Below, in pieces: positions 5,189-61,396 of a stretch of 64,000 nucleotides of DNA. This DNA is from Pseudomonadota bacterium (lineage in GTDB: Bacteria > Bdellovibrionota_G > JALEGL01 > DATDPG01), in the NCBI GenBank assembly GCA_043809315.1, contig JAZDDX010000024.1:1-64000 (forward strand), given 5' to 3'. Below the pieces are notes generated by a model. It had not been told where the DNA came from and ran no database searches. It saw nothing but the letters and a program-made list of their open reading frames with translations. How positions within the stretch are numbered: the stretch's first letter is position 1; the number at the start of each line of letters is the position of its first letter. A program made the position numbers and the translations under genes.

Positions 5189-5350
5189 GAGAATAGTGGG
5201 TGTGGTCGGCTGGCGGTTCCGGGGTTCAAGGGAGGGGGAGGAGGGACAGGCCTTGGGGGACAGGGACTTTGCGGTCTTGGAGATCGGGTGATTTGATTTA
5301 TAATAGATAAATAATAACAAATAGTTAGATTGTGTTTTCTCATTTATATC

Positions 5351-5390
5351 AATTTTCCTATTGAGGAAAATATCAAAAAATAGGAAAATT
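5351..5390. promoter_or_regulatory. Inverted-repeat operator upstream of the AbiE-like pair
   Basis: AATTTTCCTATT (5351-5362) and AATAGGAAAATT (5379-5390) form a perfect 12-bp inverted repeat in an AT-rich intergenic region. Confidence 0.6.
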
Positions 5391-5395
5391 AGGTT

Positions 5396-7317: not shown

Positions 7318-7340
7318 GGACCCGAATCTCTGGGACCACG

Positions 7341-7541
7341 ATGACTACTAAACCGGAAATCTGGGTCCGCACCGATGTTGAAGCGGATGACTCGATTCCC
7401 GGTGTGAACTCGATGTTGAGCTTTGGGTCGGCGGCGTATTTGGTCGATAAGGCACTGGTCGGTACCTTCTCCGCCAACCTGGATAAGCTTCCAGAGGTCG
7501 TTGCTGATCCGAAAACGATGAAATGGACCAGGAAGAACCCG
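7341..7541 (+). pseudogene. N-terminal remnant of a DEDD 3'-5' exoribonuclease (Rv2179c-like)
   Basis: [28 protein letters not shown]...TFSANL...KTMKW, after which similarity is lost. Confidence 0.6.
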
Positions 7542-7561
7542 AGACTTAAAGGCCGAGAGAG

Positions 7562-8320
7562 ATGCCAAGAGCAAAGAACTTGCCTATCCGCCACATTTCG
7601 ACAATCTGGCTTTGGATTTCAGACGGGATGCCGGGCGACGACCAAGACGGACGCGACAGGAAGCGCAAGGCGGTTGTTTCATGGCTATGCAAGCAGAATG
7701 CCGAGCACCTATCAGAACTCTATCGCGCAGCAGTTGTCCTCTTTGACAACGAATCATTTCCTGGACGCTTCAGGCTAATTGCTCACGCGGTTCGCGAAAT
7801 AAGAAATCGGCTCCCAGACATTCTCTCGCAAGTCGAAAACTCAGAGCGGTTTGAGGTAAGCAAAAGAGTCAGCCACTTGGTAAAGACCTGGGACAATCTA
7901 CGGGTTTCTGAGCTGCCCACGAGCGATCCGGTCGCCGGTGACAACAATGGAGAAAAACCCGGTACGGTGGCAATCCCCACGCCAGTCTTTCAGGTTGCCG
8001 CCGCCCTTGTCGATGACTTTAGAAAAGTAACCAACAAAAAGGAGGAATCCGCGCGGCGATTATTTATGGCCCTAATTCCGCATACGGAACGCAACCGAGA
8101 GCTGATGGCTCCTGTGATTCGTCAGTGGGTAGATGTAACCGAATGGTTCGCGATTCGGGCGCACGAGACCGTTCGCGCTCACACGCAACCCAGCGAGGGG
8201 GACCTCAGGAGCAACTTCTTGGTGTTTGAGGACACTTTGATGAGCTTACAAAGCAATTTCTTTGAGAATCTAGGTGAGGTTAATGACATCCTGGAACAAG
8301 CCAACAGAACACGAAGTTAG
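7562..8320 (+). CDS. Hypothetical helical protein, possible HEPN-like nuclease
   Basis: [16 protein letters not shown] and WFAIRAHE motifs. Start is uncertain (could be ATG 7628). Confidence 0.5.
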
Positions 8321-11207: not shown

Positions 11208-11880
11208 TACACCATTCACGCACGTTCTGCGTAGGTCGGGCGCCGATCGATTTCCTATTCGGTCGCCAGAGACGATATGCAAGCTGCTCTCCTGCATTAT
11301 CCTTGTGGCGAACATCCTGAGCGCCTGCGATCGCAAGCCAGACACTCTCCTGGAATGTCTTCTGAGAGCCGCCGAGAAACAGACGGAAAAGGAAATAAAC
11401 CTGGCTACTCGTATCTGTAGAGAGGTCCTTCCGGAAGGCCAGACAGACAGGCACACTGGAGATCTTCCGACGGGCAGCTACTTCTTCAAGACCTCCGCAG
11501 CTTCCTGCGAAGAAATCCTATTTACGAGACAGGGCAGACTATCTGCCAAAAGTGGATTCTGTGGAAATGAATCGAGGATCGAGAGACCGAGCGGGAAAGA
11601 ACCACTGCTTATCTGTGCAGGATTCCAGATTCTGAGTGAAGAGGACGGCCTTTTTCGCATCGTACGTATGCCGAATGAAGAAGACCTAGAGTTGATCTAT
11701 CTGGATGACCAACGTACCAACAACATCATCGATCTACACCGAACCCTTGCACGTTGTGAGATGACTATCTCCGAGTCCGAACGAAGTACCCAAAGAGCAA
11801 ACGAACCAATATCAGGCCTTCGAAAACTGTTGAAGCTTCCGACATTTCGGTCGCCCAAGAAGGCCAAGAAGAGCCGCTGA
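11191..11880 (+). CDS. Hypothetical protein, possible lipoprotein
   Basis: Co-oriented ORF with a hydrophobic stretch ending in LSAC. Confidence 0.45.
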   Translation: MTKRPDTPFTHVLRRSGADRFPIRSPETICKLLSCIILVANILSACDRKPDTLLECLLRAAEKQTEKEINLATRICREVLPEGQTDRHTGDLPTGSYFFKTSAASCEEILFTRQGRLSAKSGFCGNESRIERPSGKEPLLICAGFQILSEEDGLFRIVRMPNEEDLELIYLDDQRTNNIIDLHRTLARCEMTISESERSTQRANEPISGLRKLLKLPTFRSPKKAKKSR

Positions 11881-12028
11881 ATGGGAGCCGGGTTCCGTGC
11901 ACACAAAGTCCCACGCTTTCAAAGAGGTAGCGTTTCTTTCTAAGGCTTATACGCAACTGAGTCTGGAAAGACTCGCAGGAGTGTGAGTTGTGACAGGGAA
12001 CGGATGGTTGGTAGGCGGTAGAGTGGTG

Positions 12029-12229
12029 CTAGAAGAGCTTCTTGCTCTTGAGCTTTTGGATGACGGCGTCTCGGATCCAATCGCTTTCGGATAGATAGAC
12101 TCCCTCCTTGTCCATCCGATCGAGGTCTTTTTGAACGGCTTCCCGAATATGCTTCGGGACCCGGGTTTGCATGACGGCAGGGAAGGAGACCCGCCGACCG
12201 ATATTGCGTTTCTGCTTCTCGGAAGGCAT
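12029..12229 (-). CDS. Ribbon-helix-helix DNA-binding protein
   Basis: MQTRVPKHIREAV...SESDWIRDAV pattern. Confidence 0.6.
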   Translation of the reverse strand: MPSEKQKRNIGRRVSFPAVMQTRVPKHIREAVQKDLDRMDKEGVYLSESDWIRDAVIQKLKSKKLF

Positions 12230-12320
12230 GACAATGCGATCTTATACGCTTGTATTACAAAAAAGGCGAAAGATTGCGCTGAGAGGGCCGTGCGGAAAGC
12301 ATCGCGCCGCGCGTTATTCC

Positions 12321-12339
12321 ATCGCACATTTATCGCACA
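12321..12339 (+). promoter_or_regulatory. Putative integrase arm-type sites, right end
   Basis: ATCGCACA-TT-TATCGCACA, same motif and 11-bp period as 91-110. Confidence 0.6.
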
Positions 12340-12469
12340 TCACATCTCAAAATCGACCGATTTGCGCCGCTCTGCGCCGACGTGGGCCGACAAGAAAAAC
12401 ATCAAAAATACGAGTGGTTGAGAACGTTTTGATGAAATTTCCGAATCTTGAAAAATCCCTTCGGCCGCG

Positions 12470-12552
12470 CTCATAACCCGAAGGTCATAGGTTCAAATCC
12501 TATCCCCGCTACCAAAGTTTCAAGGGGTTAGCTCGGCGAGAGCTAGCCCCTT
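12470..12552 (+). repeat. attR: duplicated tRNA-Met 3' half plus terminator hairpin
   Basis: 82/83 match to 1-83; the upstream sequence is not a tRNA 5' half. Confidence 0.95.
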
Positions 12553-13829
12553 TGAATTTTCCGCGCCAGCAAGTCGCCTGCTCGTTGAAGTGCCAAGGCC
12601 GGCTCATCGCCGAACTTGCGCGAAAGAAGCTCGATCACCTCTTCGGCGGCGAAGACCCGATTGCGCCCGAAGCCGGTACGTTCCCGGACGATCTTCGCAC
12701 TCACGAGCTGATCGACCGCGTGGTTTGCCGTGGGAACACTCACTTTAAGTCTCGAGACGAGATTTTTGACCGTAAAGATCGGGCAAGTGATTAGGAAGCG
12801 GAGGGAACGTTGAGCGGCGGACCGCCCTCGAAATGCTGCTCGTTCGGCCCATTGGTCAGGCAATTCAAGAATCACCTTTCGGGTTTGTATGGCCTCATCC
12901 CGGGAAGCAGCGATGGCCTCGCTGATGAATTCCACGATCGGCCCATACCGGAGCTTCTGTTGCGCCTCTCCGAGCGCTTTTAAATACTCCAACCGCTCGG
13001 CTTCGATGAATCCCGAGAGATAGAGCGGAAGATGACCGTGGCAGGCCATCTGCAACGTCATCAAGATCCGTCCGACCCTTCCGTTCCCGTCCGAGAACGG
13101 GTGAACAGCCTCGAAATGGCTATGGCCGATCGCCATTCGGACGGGAAGAGTCATTCCCAACCCCGCGTCGCCCAGTTCGATCAGCTCCGAGTTCCCCATC
13201 CAGGCCATCGTTTCACGCAGGCATCGGGCGACGTGGCGTGGAGGGGCGGGGTTATAGATCGATTCCTCCTTGCGTCGCAGTCCGCCGATGAATACGACCG
13301 ACCCAGGCTGACCCGGCCGGCGAAGTGTACCCGGCCTCCCCTTGAAGTGCGGGTCATGGACGGTGATTCTCCGATGCAGGCGAGAGGCAAGGCCGACCGA
13401 GAAGATGGCGGGACCCCTCTTAATCGCCGTCTTGAATTCGTGCTCCAGTGCGTGTGCATATCCCAATACAGCGGCGCGTTCCTGTCGCCCGCTCTTGCGA
13501 TCGAACAGCTCTCCGGGGGTCAAGACGTGGTCAATGGTCGACCAGGTTCCCTCCATTCGGGAAGATTGAACGGCTTCGCGGCGGACGAAGAGAAACGAGA
13601 TCAATTCGTCGACCTCGTCCACGTCTTTGTAATGCGGAAGCTGATCGATCGAACGATTGGCTTTTCCGAGCGCCTTGAGGGGAAGCTTCCCCTGAAGTTT
13701 CTCGGGCGGGGGAGGGGGAACAACAAACCAGATGTTGTTGAGTCCGGGTTCAGGAACCTTCTCAACACCGCACAGTAGCCCTGGCCGGTATTCCTGAGCA
13801 AGAGGTGGCGCCAGTCGATCTCGCTTCAT
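12543..13829 (-). CDS. Fic family protein with C-terminal HTH
   Basis: HPFSDGNGRVGR motif, N-terminal REAVQSSRMEG. Confidence 0.93.
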   Translation of the reverse strand: MKRDRLAPPLAQEYRPGLLCGVEKVPEPGLNNIWFVVPPPPPEKLQGKLPLKALGKANRSIDQLPHYKDVDEVDELISFLFVRREAVQSSRMEGTWSTIDHVLTPGELFDRKSGRQERAAVLGYAHALEHEFKTAIKRGPAIFSVGLASRLHRRITVHDPHFKGRPGTLRRPGQPGSVVFIGGLRRKEESIYNPAPPRHVARCLRETMAWMGNSELIELGDAGLGMTLPVRMAIGHSHFEAVHPFSDGNGRVGRILMTLQMACHGHLPLYLSGFIEAERLEYLKALGEAQQKLRYGPIVEFISEAIAASRDEAIQTRKVILELPDQWAERAAFRGRSAAQRSLRFLITCPIFTVKNLVSRLKVSVPTANHAVDQLVSAKIVRERTGFGRNRVFAAEEVIELLSRKFGDEPALALQRAGDLLARKIQRG

Positions 13830-48626: not shown

Positions 48627-49205
48627 ATTCGAAAAAACTCTCCATCGTGGTTCGTCTACATGATCGAGACCGATCGCCGGTTCCTGTACACCGGAATCAC
48701 CTCCGATCTCGAACGAAGACTCGCCCAGCACCGGAACGGGGAGGGGGCGAAGTTCTTTCGGACGCAGGCCCCCATGAAGATCGTCTACGTGGAGCGGTGT
48801 CCCTCCAAGGGGAACGCGTTACGGCGCGAGGCGGAAATCAAGCGGCTCTCACGGCAGGAAAAACAGAAGCTCACGAATGTTCGTGCTCCAAGATCCGTGT
48901 CGGACCTCGTTTACGCCTGGGTGAAACGGATTCCGCGAGGGCGCGTGATGACGTACGGTCAGATCTCAAACCTTTTGCACAAGAGGCTGTCGGCGCGGGC
49001 CGTCGGGTGGGCCATGCGCAACTCCCCGAAAGGGGTCCATTGGCATCGGGTCGTGAATGCATCGGGAGGCTGTTCCACCGACCGTCTTCCGGATGCGCCC
49101 GCAGGGCTTCAACGACACCTCCTGGAATCGGAGAGAATTGTGTTTCGGAGCGACGGGACGATCGACCTCGGAAAGTATCGTTGGGTTCCCAGAAAATTGG
49201 TATAG
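48627..49205 (+). CDS. GIY-YIG endonuclease fused to an alkyltransferase-like (ATL) domain
   Basis: WFVY...LYTGITSDLERRLAQH...GAKF, then IPRGRVMTYGQI...ARAVG...HWHRVV. Start uncertain (ATT 48627 or ATG 48660). Confidence 0.8.
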   Translation: MRKNSPSWFVYMIETDRRFLYTGITSDLERRLAQHRNGEGAKFFRTQAPMKIVYVERCPSKGNALRREAEIKRLSRQEKQKLTNVRAPRSVSDLVYAWVKRIPRGRVMTYGQISNLLHKRLSARAVGWAMRNSPKGVHWHRVVNASGGCSTDRLPDAPAGLQRHLLESERIVFRSDGTIDLGKYRWVPRKLV

Positions 49206-49233
49206 AAGCACCCGATTTTCACGGGAGGTTCGG

Positions 49234-49456
49234 ATGAAACGGTTCCGTCGGTTTCTTGCACTCGGTCTCGCGCTTCTGTCCGTCGCGCCGAACCTTCTCG
49301 GTGCCGAGCTGGGTTGGCTCAAGCCGGATGCTATCTCGATCAAAACTTACCTCCATTGAAGCCGGGAAGAAGCTGGGGGACGAGATCGCACGTCGGCTCC
49401 TGGCCGACGAGAAGTTCCAGAAGGAGCTCGCGAACTTTCGACCGGGTTCCAGGTAG
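49234..49456 (+). pseudogene. Internally deleted class A acid phosphatase (PhoN/PAP2-like) remnant
   Basis: RBS, signal peptide and WLKPDAISIKTYL joined out of frame to IEAGKKLGDEIARRLLADEKFQKELA. Confidence 0.5.
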
Positions 49457-49471
49457 GCCCCTCCTGTTCTT

Positions 49472-50512
49472 CTACCAAATCTCGTCTTTGAGGCGGAGAT
49501 ATTCGGCCCAGGCGGTGGACTCAAAATCAAAGAGGTTCTTTTGTTTTGAAAATGCGGTTTCGGCCTCCCGAAGCAAGACCTCCAGCCCGATCCGGTTGGG
49601 GGTACGCGGGGCGAGATATCGCCCAAAAAGAGTCGGATTCGAATGTCGGAGGTCGACGACGTATCTCGCCGTGTGGCGAAGAAAAAGTGGAAGGAGAATC
49701 ATCGGTCGATCTTTGGGGAACACCAGCTTCTCCCCGTACCGAGAAACGAGAGCACGCATCGTTTTGAGGTCGTTCGTATAGGCGTTCAGTTCATCCAAGA
49801 GGGAGAGAAGATTGATTTTCGGGTTGGAGAAATACATCTCCTGGGTCTCTTGGAGCTTTCTCGCGTGGATCGGATCGTTTGCGGCAAGGGGGGGGAGGGT
49901 TGGGATCGAAGCGGAAGGGAGGTCGGCTCCAAGATCGAAGCAAAGCGTGTTGCGATGGGGTGCGAAGAAGAGGCAGGAGTTTCGGCGAAGGGCGTGTGTC
50001 AGTTCGTGAACGGCGTAGGGAAGGAATTCCAGGTCGAGATCTCCCTTGGGTTTTCGGCAGCGGATCCAGCGGAGGGGGCCGATGTCGAGATCGTTCCAGG
50101 CCCAGGGGCGGGTTTTTCGAAATTCTTCGAAGACCGTCTTTGCTGTGGGTTCGGCCAGGGTGTGGATTGTTTTCGTAGCTTCCAGGAGGCAGGGGCCATC
50201 GTCTGCCGACGGCTGTACCCGGTCGCCGATCATGAACGCGGACGGTGCGCTCGCATGGAGGGGGTCGCGATAGATGACCACCTCCATTGTCTGGTTCAGG
50301 AGAAAGACGGCTTTCCAGCAGTGGTTTTCTTGAAGCAAGGCCGGAGCCTCTTTCATTCCTTCCGAAAAGTGGGTGAGAAAGTCGCGGACGGCCGCAAGCT
50401 CGTGGTCGATTTCTTGTTGGGAGAGACAGTGTTGTGCGGACGGTGGTGGCGCGGGACGAGACGGAACGCAGGCGGAGAGCAAGCAGGCGACCAGAATGGA
50501 TTCGCGCTTCAT
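49472..50512 (-). CDS. Lipoprotein with a gluzincin-like HExxH motif
   Basis: LSAC lipobox; AVHELTH...DELNAY; 16 bp downstream of the last Rhs cassette. Confidence 0.7.
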   Translation of the reverse strand: MKRESILVACLLSACVPSRPAPPPSAQHCLSQQEIDHELAAVRDFLTHFSEGMKEAPALLQENHCWKAVFLLNQTMEVVIYRDPLHASAPSAFMIGDRVQPSADDGPCLLEATKTIHTLAEPTAKTVFEEFRKTRPWAWNDLDIGPLRWIRCRKPKGDLDLEFLPYAVHELTHALRRNSCLFFAPHRNTLCFDLGADLPSASIPTLPPLAANDPIHARKLQETQEMYFSNPKINLLSLLDELNAYTNDLKTMRALVSRYGEKLVFPKDRPMILLPLFLRHTARYVVDLRHSNPTLFGRYLAPRTPNRIGLEVLLREAETAFSKQKNLFDFESTAWAEYLRLKDEIW

Positions 50513-50528
50513 TCTCGATTGTCCACGA

Positions 50529-51773
50529 CTACGGGTAATATTTCTTGATGAATTCCTGGGGTGACAGGGGCTTGCCGACTTGCATCCACATGTGTTCGCC
50601 TCCGCCGAAAAACGTGTTCAAGGAGGCTTTGACGGCGTCGAGATTTCCAGCCGTGAGCGGTGCGGAATAAAATGGCTTCCCCCTGTAGATCTGCACTCCC
50701 ACGGGGGCGATGATCGGTGTGTTGTTAAGCGCCTTATCAAAGAACTCCGTCTCGTGGGTCATCATCATAGGGAGTACTTTAACCTCCCTCTTCCACGTTC
50801 CCATTCTTTCGACCGCGCCCTTCATCTCGGCGACTTTCTCCAGCACATCCTGTTTTGCTCCGACCCAATTGATCGGCGTCTTCTCGACGATCGACGCTTC
50901 CCTCACTCCAGCCCTTTCGAAATGACTCAGGATCCTGCTAGCCGCTTGCCCGGTGGCACCATAAAGAGGATTCGTAGCGCCCATGGCCAGGTTCATGTTC
51001 GCGCGGAACTTCGGATCCACGGCCATGCGTGTGGCAAAATCGACCGACATCTCTTCTACGATGGTCGGTGCCTTTGCTTCAACCGTCACGCCCGGGAGTT
51101 CGATCGGGTTACAATCCGTGCCTTTCGGACATGGTTGAGCGACATACGTCGACGCGGCGGCGGTTGAGAACGACCACGTCGGGTCGCTCTGCATCCCGCT
51201 CACATCCGTGTTGTTGATTGGATCGTTGTCGGCGTAGGCGTAGTGATTGAGCTTTACAATCTCCTTTCCTGGCGTGATCGGATCGGGGGAGATGAAGCGC
51301 GAAAGCGCAGGATCGTAATACCTTGCGTGGAGATAAAAAAGACCGGTCGACGAATCTTGCCTCTGTCCCGTGTAGCTCAGCGATTCGGCATAGCTTCCCG
51401 TTTTGGAAAGTGGTTCGCCATACGGCTTGTAAGTCGTCGTTAGCGCTGGCGATCCATCGGGTTTAGAGACGAGATGGATTGAGTCTTGGTAATCGGGATG
51501 GAGCCAAACCTTGTCGTACGTCGCGACGGTTTGTTGAGTACAAGTGGTCTGTGTGCCGCCGGGAGCCGCGGCTTTGGTTGTCCACTTCCTGCTGATCGTG
51601 CCGGGGGTCGTTGTGGATGTGGAGCAGACGGTCTGGGTGGTGGTGTTGGCGACGACCTCTTGAAGAGGTCCGGTCGGCCCCATCACGTAGATCGTGGCGG
51701 CGGCGTAAGCAGCCGAAGCGGAAAACGTCAGTCCCATCAGAAACGAAAAAAGGATTCTTGATTTCATGGCCAT
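50529..51773 (-). CDS. Signal peptide + Rhs core + unknown C-terminal cargo (cassette 3)
   Basis: HPDYQDS...YKPYG...YTGQRQD..TGLFYLHARYYDP...RFISPDP...DPINNTDVSGM. Confidence 0.9.
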   Translation of the reverse strand: MAMKSRILFSFLMGLTFSASAAYAAATIYVMGPTGPLQEVVANTTTQTVCSTSTTTPGTISRKWTTKAAAPGGTQTTCTQQTVATYDKVWLHPDYQDSIHLVSKPDGSPALTTTYKPYGEPLSKTGSYAESLSYTGQRQDSSTGLFYLHARYYDPALSRFISPDPITPGKEIVKLNHYAYADNDPINNTDVSGMQSDPTWSFSTAAASTYVAQPCPKGTDCNPIELPGVTVEAKAPTIVEEMSVDFATRMAVDPKFRANMNLAMGATNPLYGATGQAASRILSHFERAGVREASIVEKTPINWVGAKQDVLEKVAEMKGAVERMGTWKREVKVLPMMMTHETEFFDKALNNTPIIAPVGVQIYRGKPFYSAPLTAGNLDAVKASLNTFFGGGEHMWMQVGKPLSPQEFIKKYYP

Positions 51774-51809
51774 TCTTTTTGAATTCGTATTATGTCCCCG
51801 GCAGCAGCA

Positions 51810-53057
51810 TCACCATTTGCCAAGCTTGGAACGCTCCCCTACTTTCAAGACGTCCGACCAAAAGGGTGCCACCGGGTATTCCGCCTGGACACCTCCCGGA
51901 ACCTTCAGACTGAATATGGCCTCTTTCACCTCCTGCCCTCCAATACGTACGTTGGTCCAATCCATCCAGTATGTGTTCCCCGTTTTGGAGGACCAGAGCT
52001 CAAGAATGGCGTGCCCTATCTCTTTCTCAGTATTTGCTGCTGCGTGGACGGTAGGGAGATATCCTTTCGTAGCAGCTCTGGCGCCGGCCTTTATGCAAAA
52101 ATGGCGACATACGCCGCCCGCCTCCTTCACCTCCCTTGTAGCTCGGGCGGCAATCTTGCTCAGTTCGTTCACTTCCGGCAATGCTTTACTCAGATAAACG
52201 GCCCCTTCTCCCTCCGGCAGAACGGCCAACGAAGCAATCGTTCCGATTACCTCGAATTTGGTCCACTGCCTGGCGTTCATCTCTCTTTCGTAGAGATTCT
52301 TTGCATCGAAAGGACCGGGAGCTTGCGGCGCCGCACCCTGTTTCAGTTCAGGCGTTATCGAGCTCCTTGCAAGATAACCCATCCCTCCTGCGGCCTTTAT
52401 CTCCAACAACTGCTGTGGAGTTAACCCGCCAACACCGGTAGACGAGGCAACAGCCGTCGATTGCATCCCGTTTACGTCTGTGTTGTTGACCGGATCGTTG
52501 TCGGCGTAGGCGTAGTGGTTCAGTTTGACGATCTCTTTTCCCGGCGTGATCGGGTCGGGAGAGATGAATCTCGAAAGCGCGGGATCGTAATACCTTGCGT
52601 GAAGATAAAAGAGGCCGGTCGAGGAATCTTGCCTCTGTCCGGTGTAGCTCAGCGACTCTATATGGCTTCCTGTTTTCGAAAGTGGTTCGCCATACGGCTT
52701 GTAAATCGTCGTTAGCGCTGGCGATCCATCGGGTTTGGTAACGAGATGGATGGAGCCTTGATAGTCGGGATGGAGCCAAACCTTGTCGTACGTCGTGACG
52801 GTTTGCTGGGTGCAGGTTTGGGTGCCCGTGGTGCCGCCCGCAGATGCAGCCGCTTTGGTCTTTATCTTATTGAGCGCGATCGTTCCGGACGCGGTCCCGG
52901 AACTCGTGCAGACGGTTTGAGTCGTGGCGTTGGCGACGACCTCTTGAAGAGGTCCCGTCGGTCCCATCACGTAGATCGTTGCAGCAGCATGGGAAAGGGT
53001 GTGGAAGAAGAGAATTGCGGCCCAAACAGGAAACTTGTTTCGATAATTCGTTTTCAT
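51810..53057 (-). CDS. Signal peptide + Rhs core + transglutaminase/papain-like cargo (cassette 2)
   Basis: Same core; cargo GGVCRHF...GHA...WMD. Confidence 0.9.
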   Translation of the reverse strand: MKTNYRNKFPVWAAILFFHTLSHAAATIYVMGPTGPLQEVVANATTQTVCTSSGTASGTIALNKIKTKAAASAGGTTGTQTCTQQTVTTYDKVWLHPDYQGSIHLVTKPDGSPALTTIYKPYGEPLSKTGSHIESLSYTGQRQDSSTGLFYLHARYYDPALSRFISPDPITPGKEIVKLNHYAYADNDPVNNTDVNGMQSTAVASSTGVGGLTPQQLLEIKAAGGMGYLARSSITPELKQGAAPQAPGPFDAKNLYEREMNARQWTKFEVIGTIASLAVLPEGEGAVYLSKALPEVNELSKIAARATREVKEAGGVCRHFCIKAGARAATKGYLPTVHAAANTEKEIGHAILELWSSKTGNTYWMDWTNVRIGGQEVKEAIFSLKVPGGVQAEYPVAPFWSDVLKVGERSKLGKW

Positions 53058-53082
53058 AAATTACGGATGGTGTCCCCCGAAA

Positions 53083-54375
53083 TCATTTTCTCGCCATCGC
53101 ACAGTAAAAGAGGCAGCCGATTCCAAAATTCAAAGCGGTTCCGGCGGTCGTGAGAATGTTCTTGTCGATTCCAGTGTTTTGGGAGATGCGAGCAATGTCG
53201 CTCGTCGAACCCTGTGAATTGATCACGTAGTTCAGGAGGGATGCCCCCACGGACAGACCGGCCAACGCTCCCATCGCGTTACCAAATGTCGTATTCTTGG
53301 AGCCAAAATCCAACGATCCGCTTCGAGCGAGGGCAGTCAGCCCCAGGAGTTTTCCGGTGTCGACTGCATAGGGAGCGGCGAGCATGGCTGTGTGTTTCCA
53401 CCCCTCGAGGGCTTTCTCGCCGGTGAACATTCCGGCGGCGCCGGACTCGGGATTGAACTCGATCTTCTCGTACCCGCCCCCCAAAACGAGGCTGGCCAGA
53501 GCGTGGGACCCCTCGTGAACCGCCGTGTCCAGATACTCGAGCCCGGGGGTTTCATTCATTATTACGTACGGCACCGCCGGAGCCGTGGCTAAAGGTGTCA
53601 TGAGATTCCCTAGAGCAGCGACAGTGGGTCCGGGGAACAGCGGGCTCGTAAAAAGAGCTTTCGGGCTGTCGAAGGTGAGCTGAATTCCCAGGACTACCCC
53701 TCGTTCTCGGTTCGTGCCGACAGAAAAGTCCAACGTCGTCCGGCCTAGGTCTGAGGAGGGATCCTTCTTCTCTTCCCCTTGCATTCCGCTCACGTCCGTC
53801 TTGTTGACCGGATCGTTGTCGGCGTAGGCGTAGTGGTTGAGTTTGACGATCTCTTTTCCCGGCGTGATCGGATCGGGAGAGATGAATCTCGAAAGCGCAG
53901 GATCGTAGTATCTCGCGTGGAGATAAAAGAGCCCAGTGGACGAATCTTGCCTCTGTCCCGTGTAGCTCAGAGATTCGGCATAGCCTCCCGTTTTGGAGAG
54001 CGGTTCGCCATACGGCTTGTAAGTCGTCGTTAGCGCAGGCGATCCATCGGGTTTGGTAACGAGATGGACCGAGCCTTGGTAGTCGGGATGGAGCCAGACC
54101 TTGTCGTACGTCGTGGTGGTTTGTTGGGTGCAGGTCTGGGTGCTCGTGGTGCCGCCCGCCGATGCAACCGCTTTGGCTTTCATCTTATTGAGAGCGAGCG
54201 TTCCGGACGCGGTCCCGGAACTCGTGCAGACGGTTTGAGTCGTGGCGTTGGCGAAGACCTCTTGCAGAGGTCCCGTGGGCCCCATGACGTAGATCGTTGG
54301 CGAGGCGTAAGCAGCCGAAGCTGAAAACGTCAGCCCGACCAGGAACGGAAGAAAGGTTCTCGGTTTCTTGGCCAT
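53083..54375 (-). CDS. Signal peptide + Rhs core + M50-like metallopeptidase cargo (cassette 1)
   Basis: GAGGGAG RBS before ATG 54375; same core; cargo VHEGSH...AAPY...SD. Confidence 0.9.
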   Translation of the reverse strand: MAKKPRTFLPFLVGLTFSASAAYASPTIYVMGPTGPLQEVFANATTQTVCTSSGTASGTLALNKMKAKAVASAGGTTSTQTCTQQTTTTYDKVWLHPDYQGSVHLVTKPDGSPALTTTYKPYGEPLSKTGGYAESLSYTGQRQDSSTGLFYLHARYYDPALSRFISPDPITPGKEIVKLNHYAYADNDPVNKTDVSGMQGEEKKDPSSDLGRTTLDFSVGTNRERGVVLGIQLTFDSPKALFTSPLFPGPTVAALGNLMTPLATAPAVPYVIMNETPGLEYLDTAVHEGSHALASLVLGGGYEKIEFNPESGAAGMFTGEKALEGWKHTAMLAAPYAVDTGKLLGLTALARSGSLDFGSKNTTFGNAMGALAGLSVGASLLNYVINSQGSTSDIARISQNTGIDKNILTTAGTALNFGIGCLFYCAMARK

Positions 54376-54383
54376 TCTCCCTC

Positions 54384-57300
54384 TCACTGTGGAATCTCGA
54401 CGAGACCTCCTTCTAGATACAACGTTGTTTTGGTCGGGGTGGAGAGCTTGAGCCGCTGACTGTTCCCGTCATACGTGAACGTCGTGCCCAAGCCTGCGGG
54501 GCAGGCCTCGCCGGTCCCCAAGAGCGCCTTGCAGTGCTCCACCGGGTAGTTCTCGACGTCGTATCGGATCGTGGCGGGACTGTTCTTGGCGACGTCCCAG
54601 TGGGTTGTCATGTTTCCGTTCAAGTCGTAGCCGTAAGTCCCGCTCACTCCTGAAACCGTTTTCACCGCGTGAGGGATCGCCGAACCGGACGACGGATACG
54701 TCATCGTTCGGGTCAGGCTACCCACTTTCTTCTCGGTCAGGTTTCCGATCGAATCGTACTTGTAATACTCCGTGTTCGGATCGCCGGTGTTGCCGTTGTA
54801 AACCGCATCGGTCAGGCGGTGGAGCGAGTCGTACGTGAAGCGCCAGGGACCCCGGACGGTCAACATCCCCTCCTTGTTGCGGTTGGGACGGCCGTAGTCG
54901 AGGTTCTGCACCGAGCAGGTGTTCTTGGCCTCCGTCTTTTTCTGTGTGCAGATCTTGGTCAGCCATCCACGCGCGTTGTCGTACTCATACGTGGTCTTGT
55001 TGGGGTTCGGGCTCGCGTACACCTGTTCCTTGATCTGCCCGTCGGCATAGTAATCCGCCGACTCCATCGCCCCTGAGACGTAGTTCATGCGACCCAGAGG
55101 ATCGTAGCCGTAGCTGTAGTTGAACGGGATGTTTCCCAGATAGTAGTCCTTCAGCACCACCCGCCCGCTTTTATCGTACGCCTGGGAGAAGGCGTACCAG
55201 GTCAACCCCACTTTCCGATTCGTGGTCCGGAGTCTTCCCAGGGCGTCGTAGTTGTAAAGCTCCTCCCCATGCGGATCGACCATTTGAGTCAAGCGCCCGA
55301 GATTGAAATACCCCGATCGCTGCTGGTCGTAGGCCCATCGGCTTCCCGTGTACGAAGAGCTGTTCTTGTCAGGGAAAAGTTTCTTTTCAACCTTCCTTCC
55401 GATCGGGTCGTAGCCATATTCGACTTTCTGATTTTGATTGTCTTCCGCACGCGTTAGCTGTCCTCGGTTGTCGTATGTAAAGTTGGTTTCTCCCCGGTCG
55501 GGATCGAGCTCTCTCGTCAACAAGCCGCGCGAGTCGAACCAGGTCTCGGTGACGTTCTTTTCCGTCGGGTCGGTGATCTTCTTCAGATTTCCCAGCGAAT
55601 CGAACTCGTACTTCACGGGGAGAGCGGTCGTTCCCAGATTTTCCGTGTGCGTGACGATCTTTCCCCGCGCGTCGTAGATGTCGCTGGTTTCATGACTTTC
55701 CTCATCCCAGTACGTTGTCTTCAAAAACGCCAGGCTTGAAGAACTCTGGGGTTGGTACTCATAATCGGCCCGAACATTGGCGTTGTCGGGATAGAGGAGT
55801 TTGATCGGACGGTTCAGGGTGTCGTACAGAACGAAGCTGTAGACCGGAGACTCTCCGGACTCGTAAGGTCTCGACTTCGCTCGTGCGAGTCCCCGCGAGT
55901 CGTAGGCGGTCTGTGAAACGATAATCTTGCTGCCGGAAGCACTGCTCCCACTTTCGGTCCAATAATTTCTTCCAAAACCGTCCATGTATGCTTTGGTCCA
56001 AGTTCTGCCGTTGGTTTTTCCCGGGGCGGCTTGAGGAATCGGTCCGGTGGTTTTTGTGTGTTGAATCGCCGGGTTTCCGAAGTTTAGGTAAGAGGTCTGT
56101 TGGTACTCGCCGAACGGATCGGTCACCTTCGTTTCTCGGCAGAAACCGTCATAGTCGGTTTTGGTTTCTTGGCCGTTCGGATCTTTGACCGACGAGGGTG
56201 CTCCACAAAGATCCTTGTAGATCGTTGTCGCAACGATGTTTCCACGGTTCGTAGCCCCTTCCTTAGTGAAATTGGAAAGAGGGTTCGGTCGATATAGATC
56301 GCAATCTCCCGGATCCATCGCCGGCGTCAGCGACGACAGCAAGTTGTAGGCATTCTGAACGGAGCAGGTCAGGAAGAGATGGTACGTCTTGTCGTACGCA
56401 TGGAACGTCGGGAAGCCGAGTTCGTTCACCTCCTTGGTCAGGTTGCCGTAGACATCGTAGTCGAAGGATCTTGTCGTATCTTTGACAACAGACCAGGCGT
56501 CCCCGTTCCGTTCGTAGACATAAGTCTTCTGGCTTTTTATATTTCCGACTTTTCCGTCCCCTTCACCCTCCTGAAAATAGGCGTTTTCCGCCTTCGAAAT
56601 CGGTCCCACGAGAGTTGTCGTCCCCTTCATGACCTCTGTTTTGATGGCGCGATCCACGCGATAGGTAGTCGCGTTGTTCTTCGTCTCGTACGTATAGACT
56701 GTGGTTTGATCGTCCGCGGGATTGTCTAAGCTTTGGGACCAAAGACCGTAGTCCTTCTGGCGGAGGACGTTGCCGAAGTTTCCGGCGTTACTGCATACGT
56801 CGTAGATCGTCTCCGTCCGGGTCATGGTTAGTGGGTTGGAAGAGGCGCTTGCCTCCTTTCCGAAATACCATTGCCGGACATCGGACGGCACGAAAAGAGA
56901 CCAGTAAGGATCGCTGTAACGGACCGTGGTCCCGCCTCCACCGCCGCTCCCCCCTCCGCTGCCGGGAGCCGTAGCGCTCTGAATGAATCCACCCCCTCCG
57001 CCGGTGGTCCAGGTGTAGATCCCCCACAGCTCGCAATATCCGTACACGGTCTCTTGGAGGGGAGTCCCTCTCGGATATCCTTGCCAGTACGTGGTTGCGA
57101 TCGGCCGGCCGGCACTGTGGAAGCCCTGGTGGTATTCGGTCTCGACATATGTCGGGAGTTCTTCAGTACTTGCCAGTTCCTGTTGGGTCTGGGGAAGGCG
57201 AACGATCACTTTTTGGAAACCCAACGACTTCTTCCGAACAAAATCGTACTTTCCCCCTTCGTAGCTGTACTCGGTTACCGACGGATAATTACAGGCGCCT

Positions 57301-59897
57301 CCATACACACAGTTTCTCCCGTCAAAGACCGATACTGTCTGGACCGTCTGGACCACCGGTAACCCGACCTGATTCCCGGGCCACGCGGTGGACGGCGTGT
57401 ACGAAATCTCCGTTTTTCCCCCGAGCGGTGTTGTGATGAGATGAATTACGTCCTTGGAGGCGTTGGATTGGAGAAGATACGTCTTGGACTGGGTAGAGCT
57501 ATGCACAGCTCGCCCGACCAGATCGGTCGTGCCTCTCCCTAGGAAGTCTCCCGCGCTGATCCGTTTGTAGTTGCTCGAAAAACTGTCGCCAGAGAGGGTT
57601 TGAATCTCGTTGCTGCCGATCACGCGGACGATATGGATCCAGGGATCGCCCACATCGGTGTTGGGAGCTTGGAGAATCGCCTCCGCTTTTCCGTCGCCGT
57701 TGACATCTCCCACCTGAATCGCCCGCTCGTGCCAGTAGATGTCGTTTGAAGAAAGAAGATCGACACTCGGAAGATTATTATTGCTCCCTTCGAAGACACC
57801 CCCCCCTTGGTTGGTCAGGAGATAGTTCCCGGATGAGAGAGTACTGGGAGTTTTCTGAACCAAGAGATCCAGAAGACCGTCTCCATTGAAGTCGCCCGGA
57901 ATTAAGTTGTGGTATTTCGGATTGGAACTCCCGAGCGGGTTCTCCAACACCTTCGAGCCGATCCCGCGAACGCCGATCAAAATTAGGTAACTGTCCGAGG
58001 CGCTTAAATTGTCCCAATCGCTTTCCTCTTTCAAGAGGATGTCGGTAACCCCGTCCGCGTTAAAGTCACCGGGGATCCATGCATGGGTCCTCCACGCTCC
58101 GTTCAACGAGGATCCCAGCAGGCCCGATCCGCTACCCACCTGAAAAAGTTTGTCACGGAACGTGTTCGACGGTCCGTTCAGAGCGAGAAAAACCGTGCCC
58201 GACCCACTCAGTCGCCCGAAAGACCTGTTTCGCACCAGGAGGTCGGTCCGGCGGTCGCCGTTGAAATCCCCCGTCACAATCTCCCAATTGAAAGCGTCCC
58301 AGTTCTCCACGTTGTTCGTGCACCAGAACGACGTGTTTAGCGGCTGCTGATTACAAATCCAGGCATCCCCATAACTGAATTGATCTCCCAGGTTCCAAAT
58401 GCTTCGGCTCGCGTCCTCCGCAGGCAGGAAAATGGTGTTGTCGCCCGAGGAGAGGAGAAGCCAGGGGCGAAAATCGGGCCCTCCGTCACAGTTCGGAATT
58501 ACATTTGCACCATCTATTGTCGATCGTGCCGGTTGGAGAAGGATGTCGGTCCGGCGGTCGCCGTTGAAATCTCCCGTAAGAATCTGCCCCGTCACTCCCG
58601 CCATCCATTTGCACCTGTTCATTCTTCCATCTTTGCAGGTGGGACAGGGATGCTCCGTGATGTCTCTCAATGTGAATCCGCCGTCGGGGGTCCCAAGGGC
58701 CAGGTAGGTCTTATCGAAGATCGAACTCTTGAGCAGAAGATCACTCCGGCCGTCGCCGTTGAAATCCCCCGTCGCCACTTGGCGGTACTCTCCTGCCCAG
58801 GTTCCTGGGGAACCGCCCGTGACATCCGTTAGAGACATCGCGCCGGTCTGATCGTTCTCGTACCACTCGAACGTCGTTGGCGGGAGCGTCGATCCGTCCG
58901 ACCCAACCTGGGTCACGGTTTTTAAAAGGGAGCGGCCGCTGACTTTGCTCGGGTCGTAGGTAAGATTGTACGTGGAAGCCGTGATTCCGTTGATCTTCAC
59001 GGTAACAGTGGAGAGTCTCCCCGCAGTGGTTAAAACCTGTGTTGCGTCGGTGAAATAGACAGGATCGGGACGGCTTGGATAATCACTTGGATAATCAAAA
59101 GAGACTTTGATCTTTGCGGATGGGAGCGCAAGGGTGGGCTGGGATACCCACTCCAACGGGATTCCATCGTATCCGACCTTCTGCAGTCCTTCCGTACAGT
59201 CGGCCTGATATACAACAATCGCGCCGTTCGGATGCTCGACCCGCTCCAGTCCCCACCGGAACGTCTGGCCGTTCTTTGCTCTACAAATGCTGTCGTAAAC
59301 AGCTTTGGTCCCATCCTTCCGCCAGACGATCCAGGTTCCGTAATCCTCATTCTTTTCCACGCGCTGAAACGATTCGTTCAGCGGGGAGTAATGCTTTTCG
59401 GAATTTCCTCCGAACGCATCTACGTTCTTGCAGGTCGGGCTTTTTGCCAGCTGGTCTTTGCAGCGGGAGAGGACTTCACCATCCAGATAGTAGACATCCG
59501 TAGCGTCGTACTGTGGCAGCGTATGCCACGGCCCTTTCCGTTCGATCGTGCTGTAGCCCGACAAAGACCAGCCGACGCCGACCGGACCGTTTCCGCCGGC
59601 GGAGTTATACGAAAGCGCCAGGCTCGGTTGAATGCCGTAATACGAAGGGACGGAGATCGGAACCGAGTACGAAAACGTTCCGCTGGAACCCGAGACGTTC
59701 TGAGCCACTTCGGGGAGTTTGTTCGGCATGTCCTTTGGGAACGTGTCTGGATCAACCCCCGTGGTTCCTGTCGTTCCCGTCGTCCCTGCTGTCTGTGGTG
59801 GGGGAGGAGAAGTTTCGGTGTTCGCTGGCACGGTTGCGGCATTCGAAACCGCAAAAGAGAAAAGAACGGCGACGGCGCAGATCGCAAGGGAATTCAT
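54384..59897 (-). CDS. Secreted SpvB/FG-GAP/TcB-mid/YD-repeat shell protein lacking the Rhs core
   Basis: AGAAGGAG RBS and signal peptide; LALSYNSAGGNGPVGVGWSL; seven GDFNGD-type repeats; LGFQKV; many YD repeats; ends TTLYLEGGLVEIPQ*. Confidence 0.92.
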   Translation of the reverse strand: MNSLAICAVAVLFSFAVSNAATVPANTETSPPPPQTAGTTGTTGTTGVDPDTFPKDMPNKLPEVAQNVSGSSGTFSYSVPISVPSYYGIQPSLALSYNSAGGNGPVGVGWSLSGYSTIERKGPWHTLPQYDATDVYYLDGEVLSRCKDQLAKSPTCKNVDAFGGNSEKHYSPLNESFQRVEKNEDYGTWIVWRKDGTKAVYDSICRAKNGQTFRWGLERVEHPNGAIVVYQADCTEGLQKVGYDGIPLEWVSQPTLALPSAKIKVSFDYPSDYPSRPDPVYFTDATQVLTTAGRLSTVTVKINGITASTYNLTYDPSKVSGRSLLKTVTQVGSDGSTLPPTTFEWYENDQTGAMSLTDVTGGSPGTWAGEYRQVATGDFNGDGRSDLLLKSSIFDKTYLALGTPDGGFTLRDITEHPCPTCKDGRMNRCKWMAGVTGQILTGDFNGDRRTDILLQPARSTIDGANVIPNCDGGPDFRPWLLLSSGDNTIFLPAEDASRSIWNLGDQFSYGDAWICNQQPLNTSFWCTNNVENWDAFNWEIVTGDFNGDRRTDLLVRNRSFGRLSGSGTVFLALNGPSNTFRDKLFQVGSGSGLLGSSLNGAWRTHAWIPGDFNADGVTDILLKEESDWDNLSASDSYLILIGVRGIGSKVLENPLGSSNPKYHNLIPGDFNGDGLLDLLVQKTPSTLSSGNYLLTNQGGGVFEGSNNNLPSVDLLSSNDIYWHERAIQVGDVNGDGKAEAILQAPNTDVGDPWIHIVRVIGSNEIQTLSGDSFSSNYKRISAGDFLGRGTTDLVGRAVHSSTQSKTYLLQSNASKDVIHLITTPLGGKTEISYTPSTAWPGNQVGLPVVQTVQTVSVFDGRNCVYGGACNYPSVTEYSYEGGKYDFVRKKSLGFQKVIVRLPQTQQELASTEELPTYVETEYHQGFHSAGRPIATTYWQGYPRGTPLQETVYGYCELWGIYTWTTGGGGGFIQSATAPGSGGGSGGGGGTTVRYSDPYWSLFVPSDVRQWYFGKEASASSNPLTMTRTETIYDVCSNAGNFGNVLRQKDYGLWSQSLDNPADDQTTVYTYETKNNATTYRVDRAIKTEVMKGTTTLVGPISKAENAYFQEGEGDGKVGNIKSQKTYVYERNGDAWSVVKDTTRSFDYDVYGNLTKEVNELGFPTFHAYDKTYHLFLTCSVQNAYNLLSSLTPAMDPGDCDLYRPNPLSNFTKEGATNRGNIVATTIYKDLCGAPSSVKDPNGQETKTDYDGFCRETKVTDPFGEYQQTSYLNFGNPAIQHTKTTGPIPQAAPGKTNGRTWTKAYMDGFGRNYWTESGSSASGSKIIVSQTAYDSRGLARAKSRPYESGESPVYSFVLYDTLNRPIKLLYPDNANVRADYEYQPQSSSSLAFLKTTYWDEESHETSDIYDARGKIVTHTENLGTTALPVKYEFDSLGNLKKITDPTEKNVTETWFDSRGLLTRELDPDRGETNFTYDNRGQLTRAEDNQNQKVEYGYDPIGRKVEKKLFPDKNSSSYTGSRWAYDQQRSGYFNLGRLTQMVDPHGEELYNYDALGRLRTTNRKVGLTWYAFSQAYDKSGRVVLKDYYLGNIPFNYSYGYDPLGRMNYVSGAMESADYYADGQIKEQVYASPNPNKTTYEYDNARGWLTKICTQKKTEAKNTCSVQNLDYGRPNRNKEGMLTVRGPWRFTYDSLHRLTDAVYNGNTGDPNTEYYKYDSIGNLTEKKVGSLTRTMTYPSSGSAIPHAVKTVSGVSGTYGYDLNGNMTTHWDVAKNSPATIRYDVENYPVEHCKALLGTGEACPAGLGTTFTYDGNSQRLKLSTPTKTTLYLEGGLVEIPQ

Positions 59898-60033
59898 ACA
59901 GACTCCTTCTGTAGCTGGGAAAAATCTGAGACGTTCGAAACTTTCTTTCACGCAAGAGCTCGTTTCAGTTCGAACGGAGAAAGCGAACTGGATTATAGGA
60001 TGGTTCTGCTTCGACGCAAGGCGGAACTTGAGC

Positions 60034-60333
60034 CTAGATTTGGCTGCCGGTCGTCAGGCAGTTGACGGTGCAGCGATTCATGCAGGGGTCAAAGCGATTG
60101 TAATCATTGGCGCCCGCTGCACCCCCACAGGTATTGAAGCAAAGGGTGTCGCATCCCACCGCCGCCACGGGATCGGTAAGGAGGTTCTGGGGGAGAACTG
60201 CGGCCGGGGCGGATCCGCCCTCGAGAGAGTTGGGGGAAGGTGTGTTTATTTGGCTGCCACAGGCAAAGAGGCCAAGGGTCAAAGTTAGGGTCAACATCAG
60301 GAGCAGGATTTTTATGTTGGTTGCCTGTTTCAT
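60034..60333 (-). CDS. Small Cys-rich lipoprotein upstream of the Rhs shell gene
   Basis: LFAC lipobox; CxxxCxxxC...CxxxCxxxC. Confidence 0.7.
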   Translation of the reverse strand: MKQATNIKILLLMLTLTLTLGLFACGSQINTPSPNSLEGGSAPAAVLPQNLLTDPVAAVGCDTLCFNTCGGAAGANDYNRFDPCMNRCTVNCLTTGSQI

Positions 60334-60353
60334 CTGTTCTTCCTGATGATAAA

Positions 60354-60398
60354 AGCAGGAACCATGCCAAGTTAAAATTCATTAAAATCAAGCGGTTA
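60354..60398 (-). promoter_or_regulatory. Putative sigma54 promoter with an adjacent IHF site
   Basis: Minus strand TGGCAT-GGTTC-CTGCT (60354-60369); AATCAA-GCGG-TTA (60386-60398) fits WATCAANNNNTTR. Confidence 0.55.
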
Positions 60399-60610
60399 TG
60401 CGAGTTTCGAGCGAAAGCGACTGAACAAAAGTTTGCTCTTTATGAACTTCTTGCGCATCTCGGAATCTGTCCAGAATAAGCTGGTAGGCCAGCTCAGACG
60501 GTTCAAGAGCGACGGGAGTGTCCCATCTATTTGTCCGGAGAGTTAACGGTTGTCATATAAATGACCGATATCAAACGAAAAACTAAGTATCCATCCCGCT
60601 TGGGCGGGGT

Positions 60611-61396
60611 ATGGATCTTGCGACGCTACCTTTCGTGGTTCTTCGCGCGATCCGAGCACTTTTTGCCGTTTTCATCCTGGTGTTTTCATCTTCTGTCGGC
60701 GCCCAAGAAGTGCAGTACATGTTCGATTGTCACGTCTCTTTCCTGTCGCAATTCGCGGATCCGTTCACGACCGGTCGGCCGGTCTCCAACTACGTGCTCT
60801 ATCCCTCTCACTCGATTTGCATGACGTCGGGGAGGAGTTGGTGTCGCACGTTCGGGCGGTCCCAAATCACGGAGACCATTGCCGAGCATGAGGGTGTAAC
60901 GGTTCAAGTTTTGAAACAGGAGATGACTTGGGATGAGTATGCCCCGTTCATCTTCGTCGACTGCTATCCGGCCGCCGACCCGTCGAAGAAGTTAGTCGTT
61001 CCACCTCTCGGTGAGAAACCGTGGGAAGAGGTTCTTGAAAAACGGAGCAACGATCGTCAGACGCTCAAGCCACCGATCTTCGTTCCGCTTCCGTTTGGAC
61101 CGAACTACACGCCGGTTCTCGTTCCGGTCGATCGGAACAGCCCGACCGGTCGATTTCTTGTCGAATTGGAAGATGTGATGAACCGTGCTCCCAAGCCGGC
61201 TCTCGCACTGATCGCGTCGGCACTGATCGTCGGAGGGGTTGTTGCCGCCGTCGGGGTGGCCGGTGCGCCCGAAAGCGGGGGGACGTCGGTCGCCATCTCC
61301 GCCGCCTCCCTTGCAGCGACGGGCGCAGCAATTCTCGCGATCTGCGATATCTGGAAGATCCAGGTTCGCCATCGGGCTGCGTTCCAGCCTCTCTAG
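60611..61396 (+). CDS. Secreted hypothetical protein with a C-terminal Gly/Ala-rich hydrophobic hairpin
   Basis: Signal peptide; VGGVVAAVGVAGAPESGGTSVAISAASLAA. Confidence 0.65.
   Translation: MDLATLPFVVLRAIRALFAVFILVFSSSVGAQEVQYMFDCHVSFLSQFADPFTTGRPVSNYVLYPSHSICMTSGRSWCRTFGRSQITETIAEHEGVTVQVLKQEMTWDEYAPFIFVDCYPAADPSKKLVVPPLGEKPWEEVLEKRSNDRQTLKPPIFVPLPFGPNYTPVLVPVDRNSPTGRFLVELEDVMNRAPKPALALIASALIVGGVVAAVGVAGAPESGGTSVAISAASLAATGAAILAICDIWKIQVRHRAAFQPL

Follow-up and report, generated by a model that had tools for sequence, protein, structure and literature searches.

Is an Rhs protein that stops short of its own core, followed by three genes that each carry one, a broken gene or one part of a machine made in pieces? 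The question is raised by a locus in a 64,000-nucleotide (nt) stretch of DNA, hereafter the window (positions 1-64,000 of contig JAZDDX010000024.1, assembly GCA_043809315.1), from a bacterium of the GTDB lineage Bdellovibrionota_G. The minus strand of 49472-60398 carries six consecutive genes, among them one large "shell" gene and three short "cassette" genes, and every statement about the sequence in an earlier note on this DNA could be located there. We read the locus, with a probability of roughly 0.6, as encoding a TcB/TcC-like two-part Rhs cage with a very late split, both parts of which would be exported through Sec.

The shell comprises, in order, a signal-peptide-like N-terminus, SpvB (PF03534, residues 88-249), seven FG-GAP motifs (FG-GAP/FG-GAP_3, PF01839/PF13517; seven GDFNGDG-like motifs in the translation), TcdB_toxin_midN (PF12256, residues 798-925) and RHS/YD repeats (PF05593/RHS_repeat, E 2.7e-29; TIGR01643, E 1.9e-16). 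SpvB, beta-propeller and TcdB middle region make its N-terminal half one of TcB type. In PDB sequence searches the N-terminus matched the YenB and TcdB1 chains and the RHS region matched several solved Rhs chains. No Rhs core was matched in the shell by Pfam or NCBIfam, and the protein ends on the strand TTLYLEGGLVEIPQ directly before its stop codon, as expected from the earlier description of a large SpvB/FG-GAP/TcB-mid/YD shell that stops before the core. Shell, core and toxin are thus not joined in one polypeptide, as they are in Rhs proteins.

The core is found in the cassettes. TIGR03696 (Rhs_assc_core) matched each of them at 86-87 bits (cut-off, 32.5), and its residues D168 and D194 do not vary among 30 aligned cassette relatives, so that the cassettes show the conserved core aspartates and variable C-terminus of Rhs proteins. 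Each begins with an n/h/AXA-like segment followed by TIYVMGPTGPLQEV; a Thr/Cys-rich insert of ~45-50 amino acids (aa) with 2-4 Cys follows this first strand, and ~70-95 residues lie between the signal-like segment and the core. BLASTP showed the cassettes to be homologous to one another and not to the shell, and found no match among the three C-termini. The claim that three genes each combine a signal-like start, a complete core and an unrelated C-terminus is borne out by these results.

The break was mapped on a single-chain relative of 2182 aa (G001a), with which the shell aligned up to residue 1804 and cassette residues 94-198 aligned at 1833-1935. Here the single chain reads ...TVYFGDGTEITD CQT KKYISFNGIPVAEK TNTNTR FLHADRLGT..., and the shell end is the first of these strands. 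The mature cassette start TIYVMGPTGPLQEV corresponds to KKYISFNGIPVAEK, and the KVWLHPDYQGS that follows the insert corresponds to FLHADRLGT. Because the shell end and the cassette start align in this way on the single chain, the cut lies between two neighbouring strands, and the signal-like segment is placed exactly at the new N-terminus that the cut creates. With the break so mapped and the core confined to the cassettes, the proposal that a cassette supplies the missing next strand is supported.

The genome (2.42 Mb in 44 contigs, 96% complete) contains two further loci of the same build, one on contig C5 (a 1799-aa shell and two cassettes) and one on contig C28 (a 1857-aa shell and two cassettes). 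Pairwise identity among the shells is 36-38% over their full length and, for the conserved parts of the cassettes, 53-62% from one locus to another, and all ten frames (three shells and seven cassettes) are open and intact. The shells end on the same strand (TTLYLEGGLVEIPQ, RTIYLDGGAFELRP and STLYLDGGAEEISPAP, each followed by the stop codon), and the shell/cassette junctions are 4-nt overlaps (GTGA, ATGA and GTGA). Since shells of only 36-38% identity stop at the same strand with the same overlaps, the split is not an error or a recent pseudogene, and the earlier view that it is natural holds; the split is old and has persisted while the loci diverged widely. A search of other genomes for the same cut within the same sequence family gave 45 matches, and only those from this genome covered more than 65% of cassette residues 1-210. 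The exact split point, which the earlier note suggested looking for elsewhere, was found by this search in this genome only; comparable splits at other points are described below.

We modelled the complex of shell residues 1018-1837 (25-row alignment) and cassette 2 residues 26-205 (30-row alignment) in three runs with three controls, following the suggestion that shell and cassette should dock. The ipSAE score was 0.89 in the three runs and 0.00 in the best of the three controls, with a partner predicted local distance difference test (pLDDT) score of at least 79 and a contact agreement between runs of at least 94%; the mark applied to such models is passed by 58 of 80 solved complexes and by 2 of 110 mismatched pairs. 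In the model, shell residues 1831-1836 contact cassette residues 26-34 (including the pairs 1833:28 and 1832:29), the core (cassette 144-191) lies against shell residues 1585-1790, and the insert makes no confident contact. Because split halves tend to pass through their likeness to solved Rhs and BC (TcB-TcC) cages, this docking stands for complementarity and not for assembly in the cell. A cocoon of two polypeptides, with core and hypervariable cargo on the second chain, would fit these data, the docking being that of the model. Sequence and model together give good support to the view that the cassettes complete the shell and act as its plug.

N-terminal signals were assessed by a crude rule. 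The ten shell and cassette N-termini of the three loci have 0-4 Lys/Arg and almost no acidic residue ahead of an uncharged hydrophobic stretch, which is followed by AXA-type small residues; all ten passed the rule, as did 542 of 1695 background open reading frames (ORFs), and the paralogs among the ten are not independent. More telling than the rule, in our view, is that the signal segments have diverged in sequence and yet keep the properties of signals; cassettes 1 and 3 have signals to which that of cassette 2 bears no sequence relationship. Single-chain relatives likewise begin with N-terminal signals. By this crude rule, the locus would differ from Tc (toxin complex) proteins, which assemble in the cytoplasm and are not known to have Sec signals.

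The three cargoes differ in how far they can be described. Cassette 1 consists of a signal-peptide-like N-terminus, the strand TIYVMGPTGPLQEV, the Thr/Cys-rich insert, the Rhs_assc_core (residues 123-202) and a cargo with an HExxH motif that is Peptidase_M50B-like (PF13398, E 5e-7 with the C-terminal part alone). Cassette 2 consists of a signal-peptide-like segment (~1-24), the putative complementing strand and insert (25-93), the core (94-198, ending in DVNGM) and a cargo (199-415) that is 35% identical to the cargo of the first C5 cassette; C113, H145 and D162 (numbering of the 211-aa C-terminal piece) are invariant in this paralog. No match to cargo 2 was found in the PDB sequence search, the ESM Atlas gave one match at 0.79, and an AlphaFold2 model from two sequences reached a mean pLDDT of 50.1, with nothing at E <= 0.001 when it was compared with the PDB by Foldseek. 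The weak top Foldseek rows were mostly papain-like Cys enzymes, which, together with the C113/H145/D162 invariant in the two paralogs, is only a lead. Counterparts of cargo 3 are carried by the second C5 cassette (37% identity) and by the first C28 cassette (29% identity). A HMMER scan of 1.84 billion protein representatives with cargo 3 gave two matches only, both from this genome; the PDB sequence search gave a single chance-level match, the ESM Atlas no usable match, and the AlphaFold2 model (three sequences) a mean pLDDT of 32.8.

The coordinates of the features are given in Table 1. The ATG start of the shell is preceded by a GAAGGAG Shine-Dalgarno sequence and is also the start of the database copy (P0046), and an alternative GTG would extend the ORF to 54384..59951 (1855 aa). 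The shell and cassette 1 frames are offset by one base, and an in-frame ATG lies 12 nt downstream of the GTGA overlap. Because the intergenic gaps from the shell onward (-4, 25, 36 and 16 nt) leave no space for them, there are no immunity genes between the cassettes; no ORF lies there that could be the cognate immunity gene of an Rhs toxin. A promoter and terminator scan of 49000-60700 gave 5 and 16 sites, respectively, against 3.8 and 14.5 expected, and was uninformative.

Table 1. Genes, overlap and spacers of the Rhs locus, in window coordinates
Feature	Position	Strand	Remarks
Lipoprotein gene, 99 aa, six-Cys	60034..60333	minus	accessory; precedes shell
Shell gene, 1837 aa from ATG at 59897	54384..59897	minus	Pfam and NCBIfam domains
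Overlap of shell stop and cassette 1 start, GTGA	54384..54387	minus	4 nt
Cassette 1, 434 aa	53083..54387	minus	TIGR03696 core, HExxH C-terminus
Spacer between cassettes 1 and 2, 25 nt	53058..53082	minus	holds one copy of the genome-wide repeat (CGGGGGACACCATCCGTAATT)
Cassette 2, 415 aa	51810..53057	minus	TIGR03696 core
Spacer between cassettes 2 and 3, 36 nt	51774..51809	minus	
Cassette 3, 414 aa	50529..51773	minus	plan as in cassettes 1 and 2
Lipoprotein-like gene (LSAC), 346 aa, HELTH motif	49472..50512	minus	16 nt after cassette 3

The spacers hold a repeat of ~21 nt (CGGGGGACAC[A/C]ATAC/CCG.ATTT), which occurs at window 53059-53079, C5 29102-29122, C28 3036-3056 and ~25 other places in the genome. 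Every inter-cassette spacer of the three split loci has one copy, and a looser one precedes cassette 3. The repeat may be a REP-like (repetitive extragenic palindromic) element. Elsewhere, the repeat often occurs in close inverted pairs, for example at C16 94917-94963, C5 18142-18197 and C22 14816-14874.

This arrangement of the cassettes allows another explanation, in which only the coupled cassette 1 is used and cassettes 2 and 3 are spares, moved to the first place by homologous recombination in their shared 5' region, in the manner of the C-terminal displacement by rhs orphans. Cassette DNA is 83-90% identical over ~520-600 nt, and the identity stops after ...DV(S/N)GMQ, at the core/cargo border; the shell stop is overlapped by cassette 1 only, a canonical Shine-Dalgarno sequence at normal spacing is missing before cassettes 2 and 3, and the repeat stands in every inter-cassette spacer. 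We nevertheless regard this explanation as unlikely. The starts of cassettes 2 and 3 are intact and their signal-like N-termini complete, seven of seven cassettes in the genome are intact, and the unrelated signal of cassette 2 together with the intact starts is hard to reconcile with silent spares. The spares model and a model of alternative subunits are, moreover, compatible with each other.

Two lipoprotein-like genes flank the shell and cassettes; both had gone undescribed in the earlier note and, like the Thr/Cys-rich insert, are added here. The 99-aa protein has a lipobox (LFAC) and six C-terminal cysteines. By tblastn, its homologs were found at two other places in the genome only, each immediately before one of the other split shells (C5 21931-22215 and C28 9969-10259), and the lipobox C25 and the six further Cys are invariant in the alignment of the three. 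It has three matches in its own genome, and 40 relatives gave one weak match (E 0.0017); none was found outside this genome in an index of 5.8 billion proteins, no Pfam family was matched, and the gene is absent beside the single-chain Rhs locus on C38. From this distribution, the 99-aa lipoprotein is regarded as belonging to the split Rhs system. The cysteines of the insert and the six invariant ones of the lipoprotein would fit an oxidising compartment. The 346-aa HELTH protein matched neither a Pfam nor an NCBIfam family, has no genomic paralog and lacks a counterpart at the C5 or C28 loci or after the related C5 cassette; its membership in the system is uncertain, and it may serve the last cassette in the periplasm, in immunity or in processing, or be unrelated.

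To place the split among its relatives, we compared genomes of the same phylum, of which the collection holds 17 species, eight with Rhs cores. In the sister genus (G001), the same domains and an N-terminal signal occur in six single-chain genes of 2080-2595 aa, one of which encodes the 2182-aa relative on which the break was mapped. In genome G003, a core-less 1674-aa shell is accompanied by two cassettes, of 734 and 740 aa, that bear signals and are possibly lipoproteins. The complete genome G004 has one core-less SpvB/FG-GAP/TcdB-mid shell of 1963 aa, and all three of its cores lie in frames of 488-565 aa adjoining the shell; after a signal-like segment these cassettes start at a 'PHA...YDxNG' motif, ~100 residues earlier than the window cut. 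Genome G002 has single chains and, in addition, a contig (L031; G002:C13:1-8961) with five tandem cassettes of ~510-550 aa, in which a signal-like N-terminus is followed by 'QY.YG..P.H.P..DS.Y.Y.YDRNG.L'; the contig is cut off on either side of them. Of the 120 best relatives of the C-terminal third of the shell, 12 were core-less by hidden Markov model, three being the shells of this genome and several being cut by contig ends. One core-less relative, P0082 (1738 aa), ends in ...FEYDPEGRISTVSY, and the metagenome proteins P0008 and P0011 begin with a signal and then the next strand type. Three core-less RHS proteins of ~1900-1960 aa (P0110, P0137 and P0138) end in a dockerin-like 'DVNGDG.VD..D', which may be another pairing of a core-less shell with a partner.

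Comparable splits were also found in Rhodanobacteraceae (Rhodanobacter, Dyella, Frateuria, Fulvimonas and Luteibacter). Rhodanobacter sp. OK091 has a 310-aa protein made up of a signal, HHYYYTDPQGT, a core and a C-terminus, which as a query yielded at least 567 related stretches in this family. For counting, a cassette had to be preceded by 6.5 kb or more of sequence, which left 56. A core-less, signal-bearing RHS ORF of 1455-2055 aa immediately precedes 11 of these (four of the junctions being 4-nt overlaps) and stands within 6 kb of another 10, whereas the other 35 have no core-less shell within that distance. The likeness to the window locus consists in a core-less shell at most 400 nt before a cassette of ~300-350 aa and in a core present in the cassette only. 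The differences are that no SpvB or FG-GAP was matched by Pfam in the example tested, that the core-less giants of Rhodanobacter and Dyella (loci L043, L050, L042 and others) end in an 'ACNxxGCSxWS' ChitinaseA_N-like domain (weak, E 6e-9) and not at a strand boundary, that the cut falls even closer to the core, ~20 residues ahead of it, and that most cassettes are not beside a shell. We found no description of these core-less shell/cassette pairs in print. Since G003, G004 and the Rhodanobacteraceae all show core-less shells with signal-bearing core pieces, a late split with its own signal on the plug piece recurs, at several cut points and with two kinds of shell. The layout is less singular than the earlier note supposed.

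The cassettes without a neighbouring shell suggest a further explanation, namely that cassettes are stand-alone secreted pro-toxins whose core is a self-cleaving pro-domain, and that the shell is an independent surface or adhesin-like protein that has lost its core. Proteins with a signal, core and C-terminal domain are indeed common without a nearby shell (the 35 of 56 in Rhodanobacteraceae), and the G002 array stands behind an Rhs gene that has its own core. At the window locus, however, the shell ends on one strand of the fold and the cassette starts on the next, the junction overlap is maintained at three loci whose shells are still open and core-less at 36-38% identity, and the docking model is confident where its controls give 0.00; in the complete genome of G004, moreover, the only cores are in cassettes beside the only TcdB_midN shell. 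We therefore consider this explanation quite improbable. That the split comes from an assembly error or a pseudogene, or is bypassed by programmed frameshifting to give a single chain, is hardly credible, because the 4-nt overlap of frames that differ by one base, at a junction covered by no reads, is set against the same break at three diverged loci, the ~25-aa hydrophobic segment that a fusion would bury between two strands, and the stops and spacers that separate cassettes 2 and 3.

Several observations also count against a two-part, Sec-exported cage. The contigs of the single DNA run listed cover 50995-51608 and 53801-53830 (30 nt) and not the junction, no Shine-Dalgarno sequence is well placed before cassettes 2 and 3, and the signal rule is passed by many background ORFs. 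The docking score may echo the likeness to solved Rhs/BC cages, and how a 215-aa cargo would enter a separately folding shell is unexplained. Neither an outer-membrane route nor a TcA-like partner was identified, the TcA controls being silent. The G002 array behind a gene with its own core weighs in the same direction, as do the Rhodanobacteraceae cassettes without a neighbouring shell, which may act in trans or alone; these are the main reason for caution. Orphan tccC genes are likewise thought to work in trans.

Among known systems, the locus resembles TcB/TcC (YenB-YenC1-3, TcdB-TccC) in the B-type series of SpvB, beta-propeller, TcdB-mid and RHS, in the placing of core and variable cargo on a separate subunit, and in the absence of immunity genes. 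It differs in the signal-peptide-like N-termini on both of its parts; Tc subunits are not known to have Sec signals. It differs further in its conserved small lipoprotein gene and in the lack of a TcA match, as the families PF18276 and PF03538 gave none in the 96%-complete genome or in any control genome. The size of the second part is another difference: the cassettes have 414-434 aa, whereas 97.2% of 2,528 TcC proteins are reported to have 851-1,050 aa (Song et al. 2021, PMC7861908), and the cassettes do not carry the large share of the RHS shell that goes with this size. The earlier statement that Tc toxins split much earlier fits these reported sizes. The Tc of Y. entomophaga is reported to be released by lysis (PMC10847048), and YenB of Yersinia entomophaga to package three YenC subunits (PMC11067744). 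The locus has one shell gene and several putative cargo subunits, as the earlier note held; given this reported precedent, the novelty of such a layout has to be qualified.

The shell architecture and N-terminal signal are shared with a single-chain class in print, 'TcdB/TcaC', which combines a signal peptide, SpvB, beta-propeller and RHS (Zhang et al. 2012, PMC3482391). The difference is that the window chain is cut before its last strands and that the downstream piece has a start codon and a signal. With classical rhs orphan rhs-CT (C-terminal) arrays, the cassettes share a common 5' core-coding part and the divergence after the core motif. Classical orphan cassettes are not known to have signals of their own, and are fragments homologous to the end of the main gene. 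The window cassettes, in contrast, have their own ATG or GTG and a signal-like N-terminus, are not homologous to the shell and lack immunity genes, and the gene upstream has no core that could be displaced. Classical orphans are reported to be paired with immunity genes and to have no starts of their own (PMC3150448). Type VI secretion system (T6SS) Rhs effectors share the YD cocoon and C-terminal core; in Pseudomonas protegens RhsA, the cocoon is reported to be closed by a C-terminal aspartyl-protease core and to release the enclosed toxin (PMC8765631). These effectors are single chains linked to PAAR/VgrG, whereas the window system is split and its shell has an SpvB-type N-terminus with a propeller; no VipB/TssC sheath gene was found in the 96%-complete genome, with a positive control in E. 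coli. The two-part Rhs/BC cage is known; its form here has an unexpected cut point, putative export signals on both parts and a new small partner gene. In the literature, covered as full text with subscription journals and supplements outside its scope, no late-split Rhs with signal-bearing cassettes was found.

The surroundings of the locus were also surveyed. Its neighbours are polysaccharide genes, a rubrerythrin and a Y-family polymerase. Of four secretins encoded in the genome, two flank the C5 locus (C5 14838-17237 and 31584-34067), and none was found near the window locus; a type II secretion route is not claimed. After the second of the C5 secretins, at C5 34064-36001, lies a GspE/PilB-like ATPase-type ORF, judged by eye from its translation; the window locus has no such gene nearby either. 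The product of a fourth Rhs gene, at C38 22083-28160, is one chain of 2025 aa that begins with a lipoprotein-type N-terminus and includes a core. At the other end of the window, 139-13829 resembles a mobile island, with a tyrosine integrase (2679-3815), Replic_Relax (4166-5188), an AbiEii-type nucleotidyltransferase (6460-7317), Fic/DOC (12543-13829), an 847-aa protein with seven DUF4379 treble-clef fingers (139-2682) and a 977-aa ORF for which no family was found.

For the two-part cage, the following course can be proposed. The 1837-aa shell would form nearly the whole YD-repeat cocoon and the SpvB/beta-propeller end. A cassette (~415 aa) would shed its signal peptide and add the next beta-strand or strands at the open end of the shell, and its core, an aspartyl protease, would seat as the inner plug and cut after ...DV(S/N)GM, so that the ~215-aa cargo would remain inside. 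Cassette 1 would be translationally coupled to the shell via the 4-nt overlap, cassettes 2 and 3 would be alternative C-subunits with other cargoes, and the six-Cys lipoprotein would be a third component, possibly a membrane tether or an assembly factor. Separate export, assembly outside the cytoplasm and the use of three cargoes are reasonable expectations from this arrangement, and we likewise infer the function of the signal peptides, folding in the periplasm, the enclosure of the cargo, the role of the lipoprotein, the outer-membrane route and the target. More tentatively, such cages may be closed and loaded only after translocation: separate unfolded chains would cross the inner membrane, the cargo would enter in the periplasm, strand and plug would form the seal with the dedicated lipoprotein as a third component not seen before, cargo subunits would compete for the shell, and unrelated bacteria, cultured Rhodanobacteraceae among them, would have come to the same solution at several cut points.

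In the solved Rhs/BC cages, the toxin is enclosed as one chain, or two co-expressed cytoplasmic chains, folds round it. Nearly a whole cage and a plug-plus-cargo that are separate Sec substrates would raise the question of whether a YD shell can fold open and be loaded afterwards. If this reading is true, several cargoes could be offered to one cage without DNA rearrangement. Comparable splits occur in cultured soil bacteria that are not pathogenic (Rhodanobacter and Dyella), so the question is testable at the bench. In annotation, a core-less 'RHS repeat' giant and a short 'RHS repeat-associated core' protein will in many cases probably be the two halves of one machine, and not fragments.

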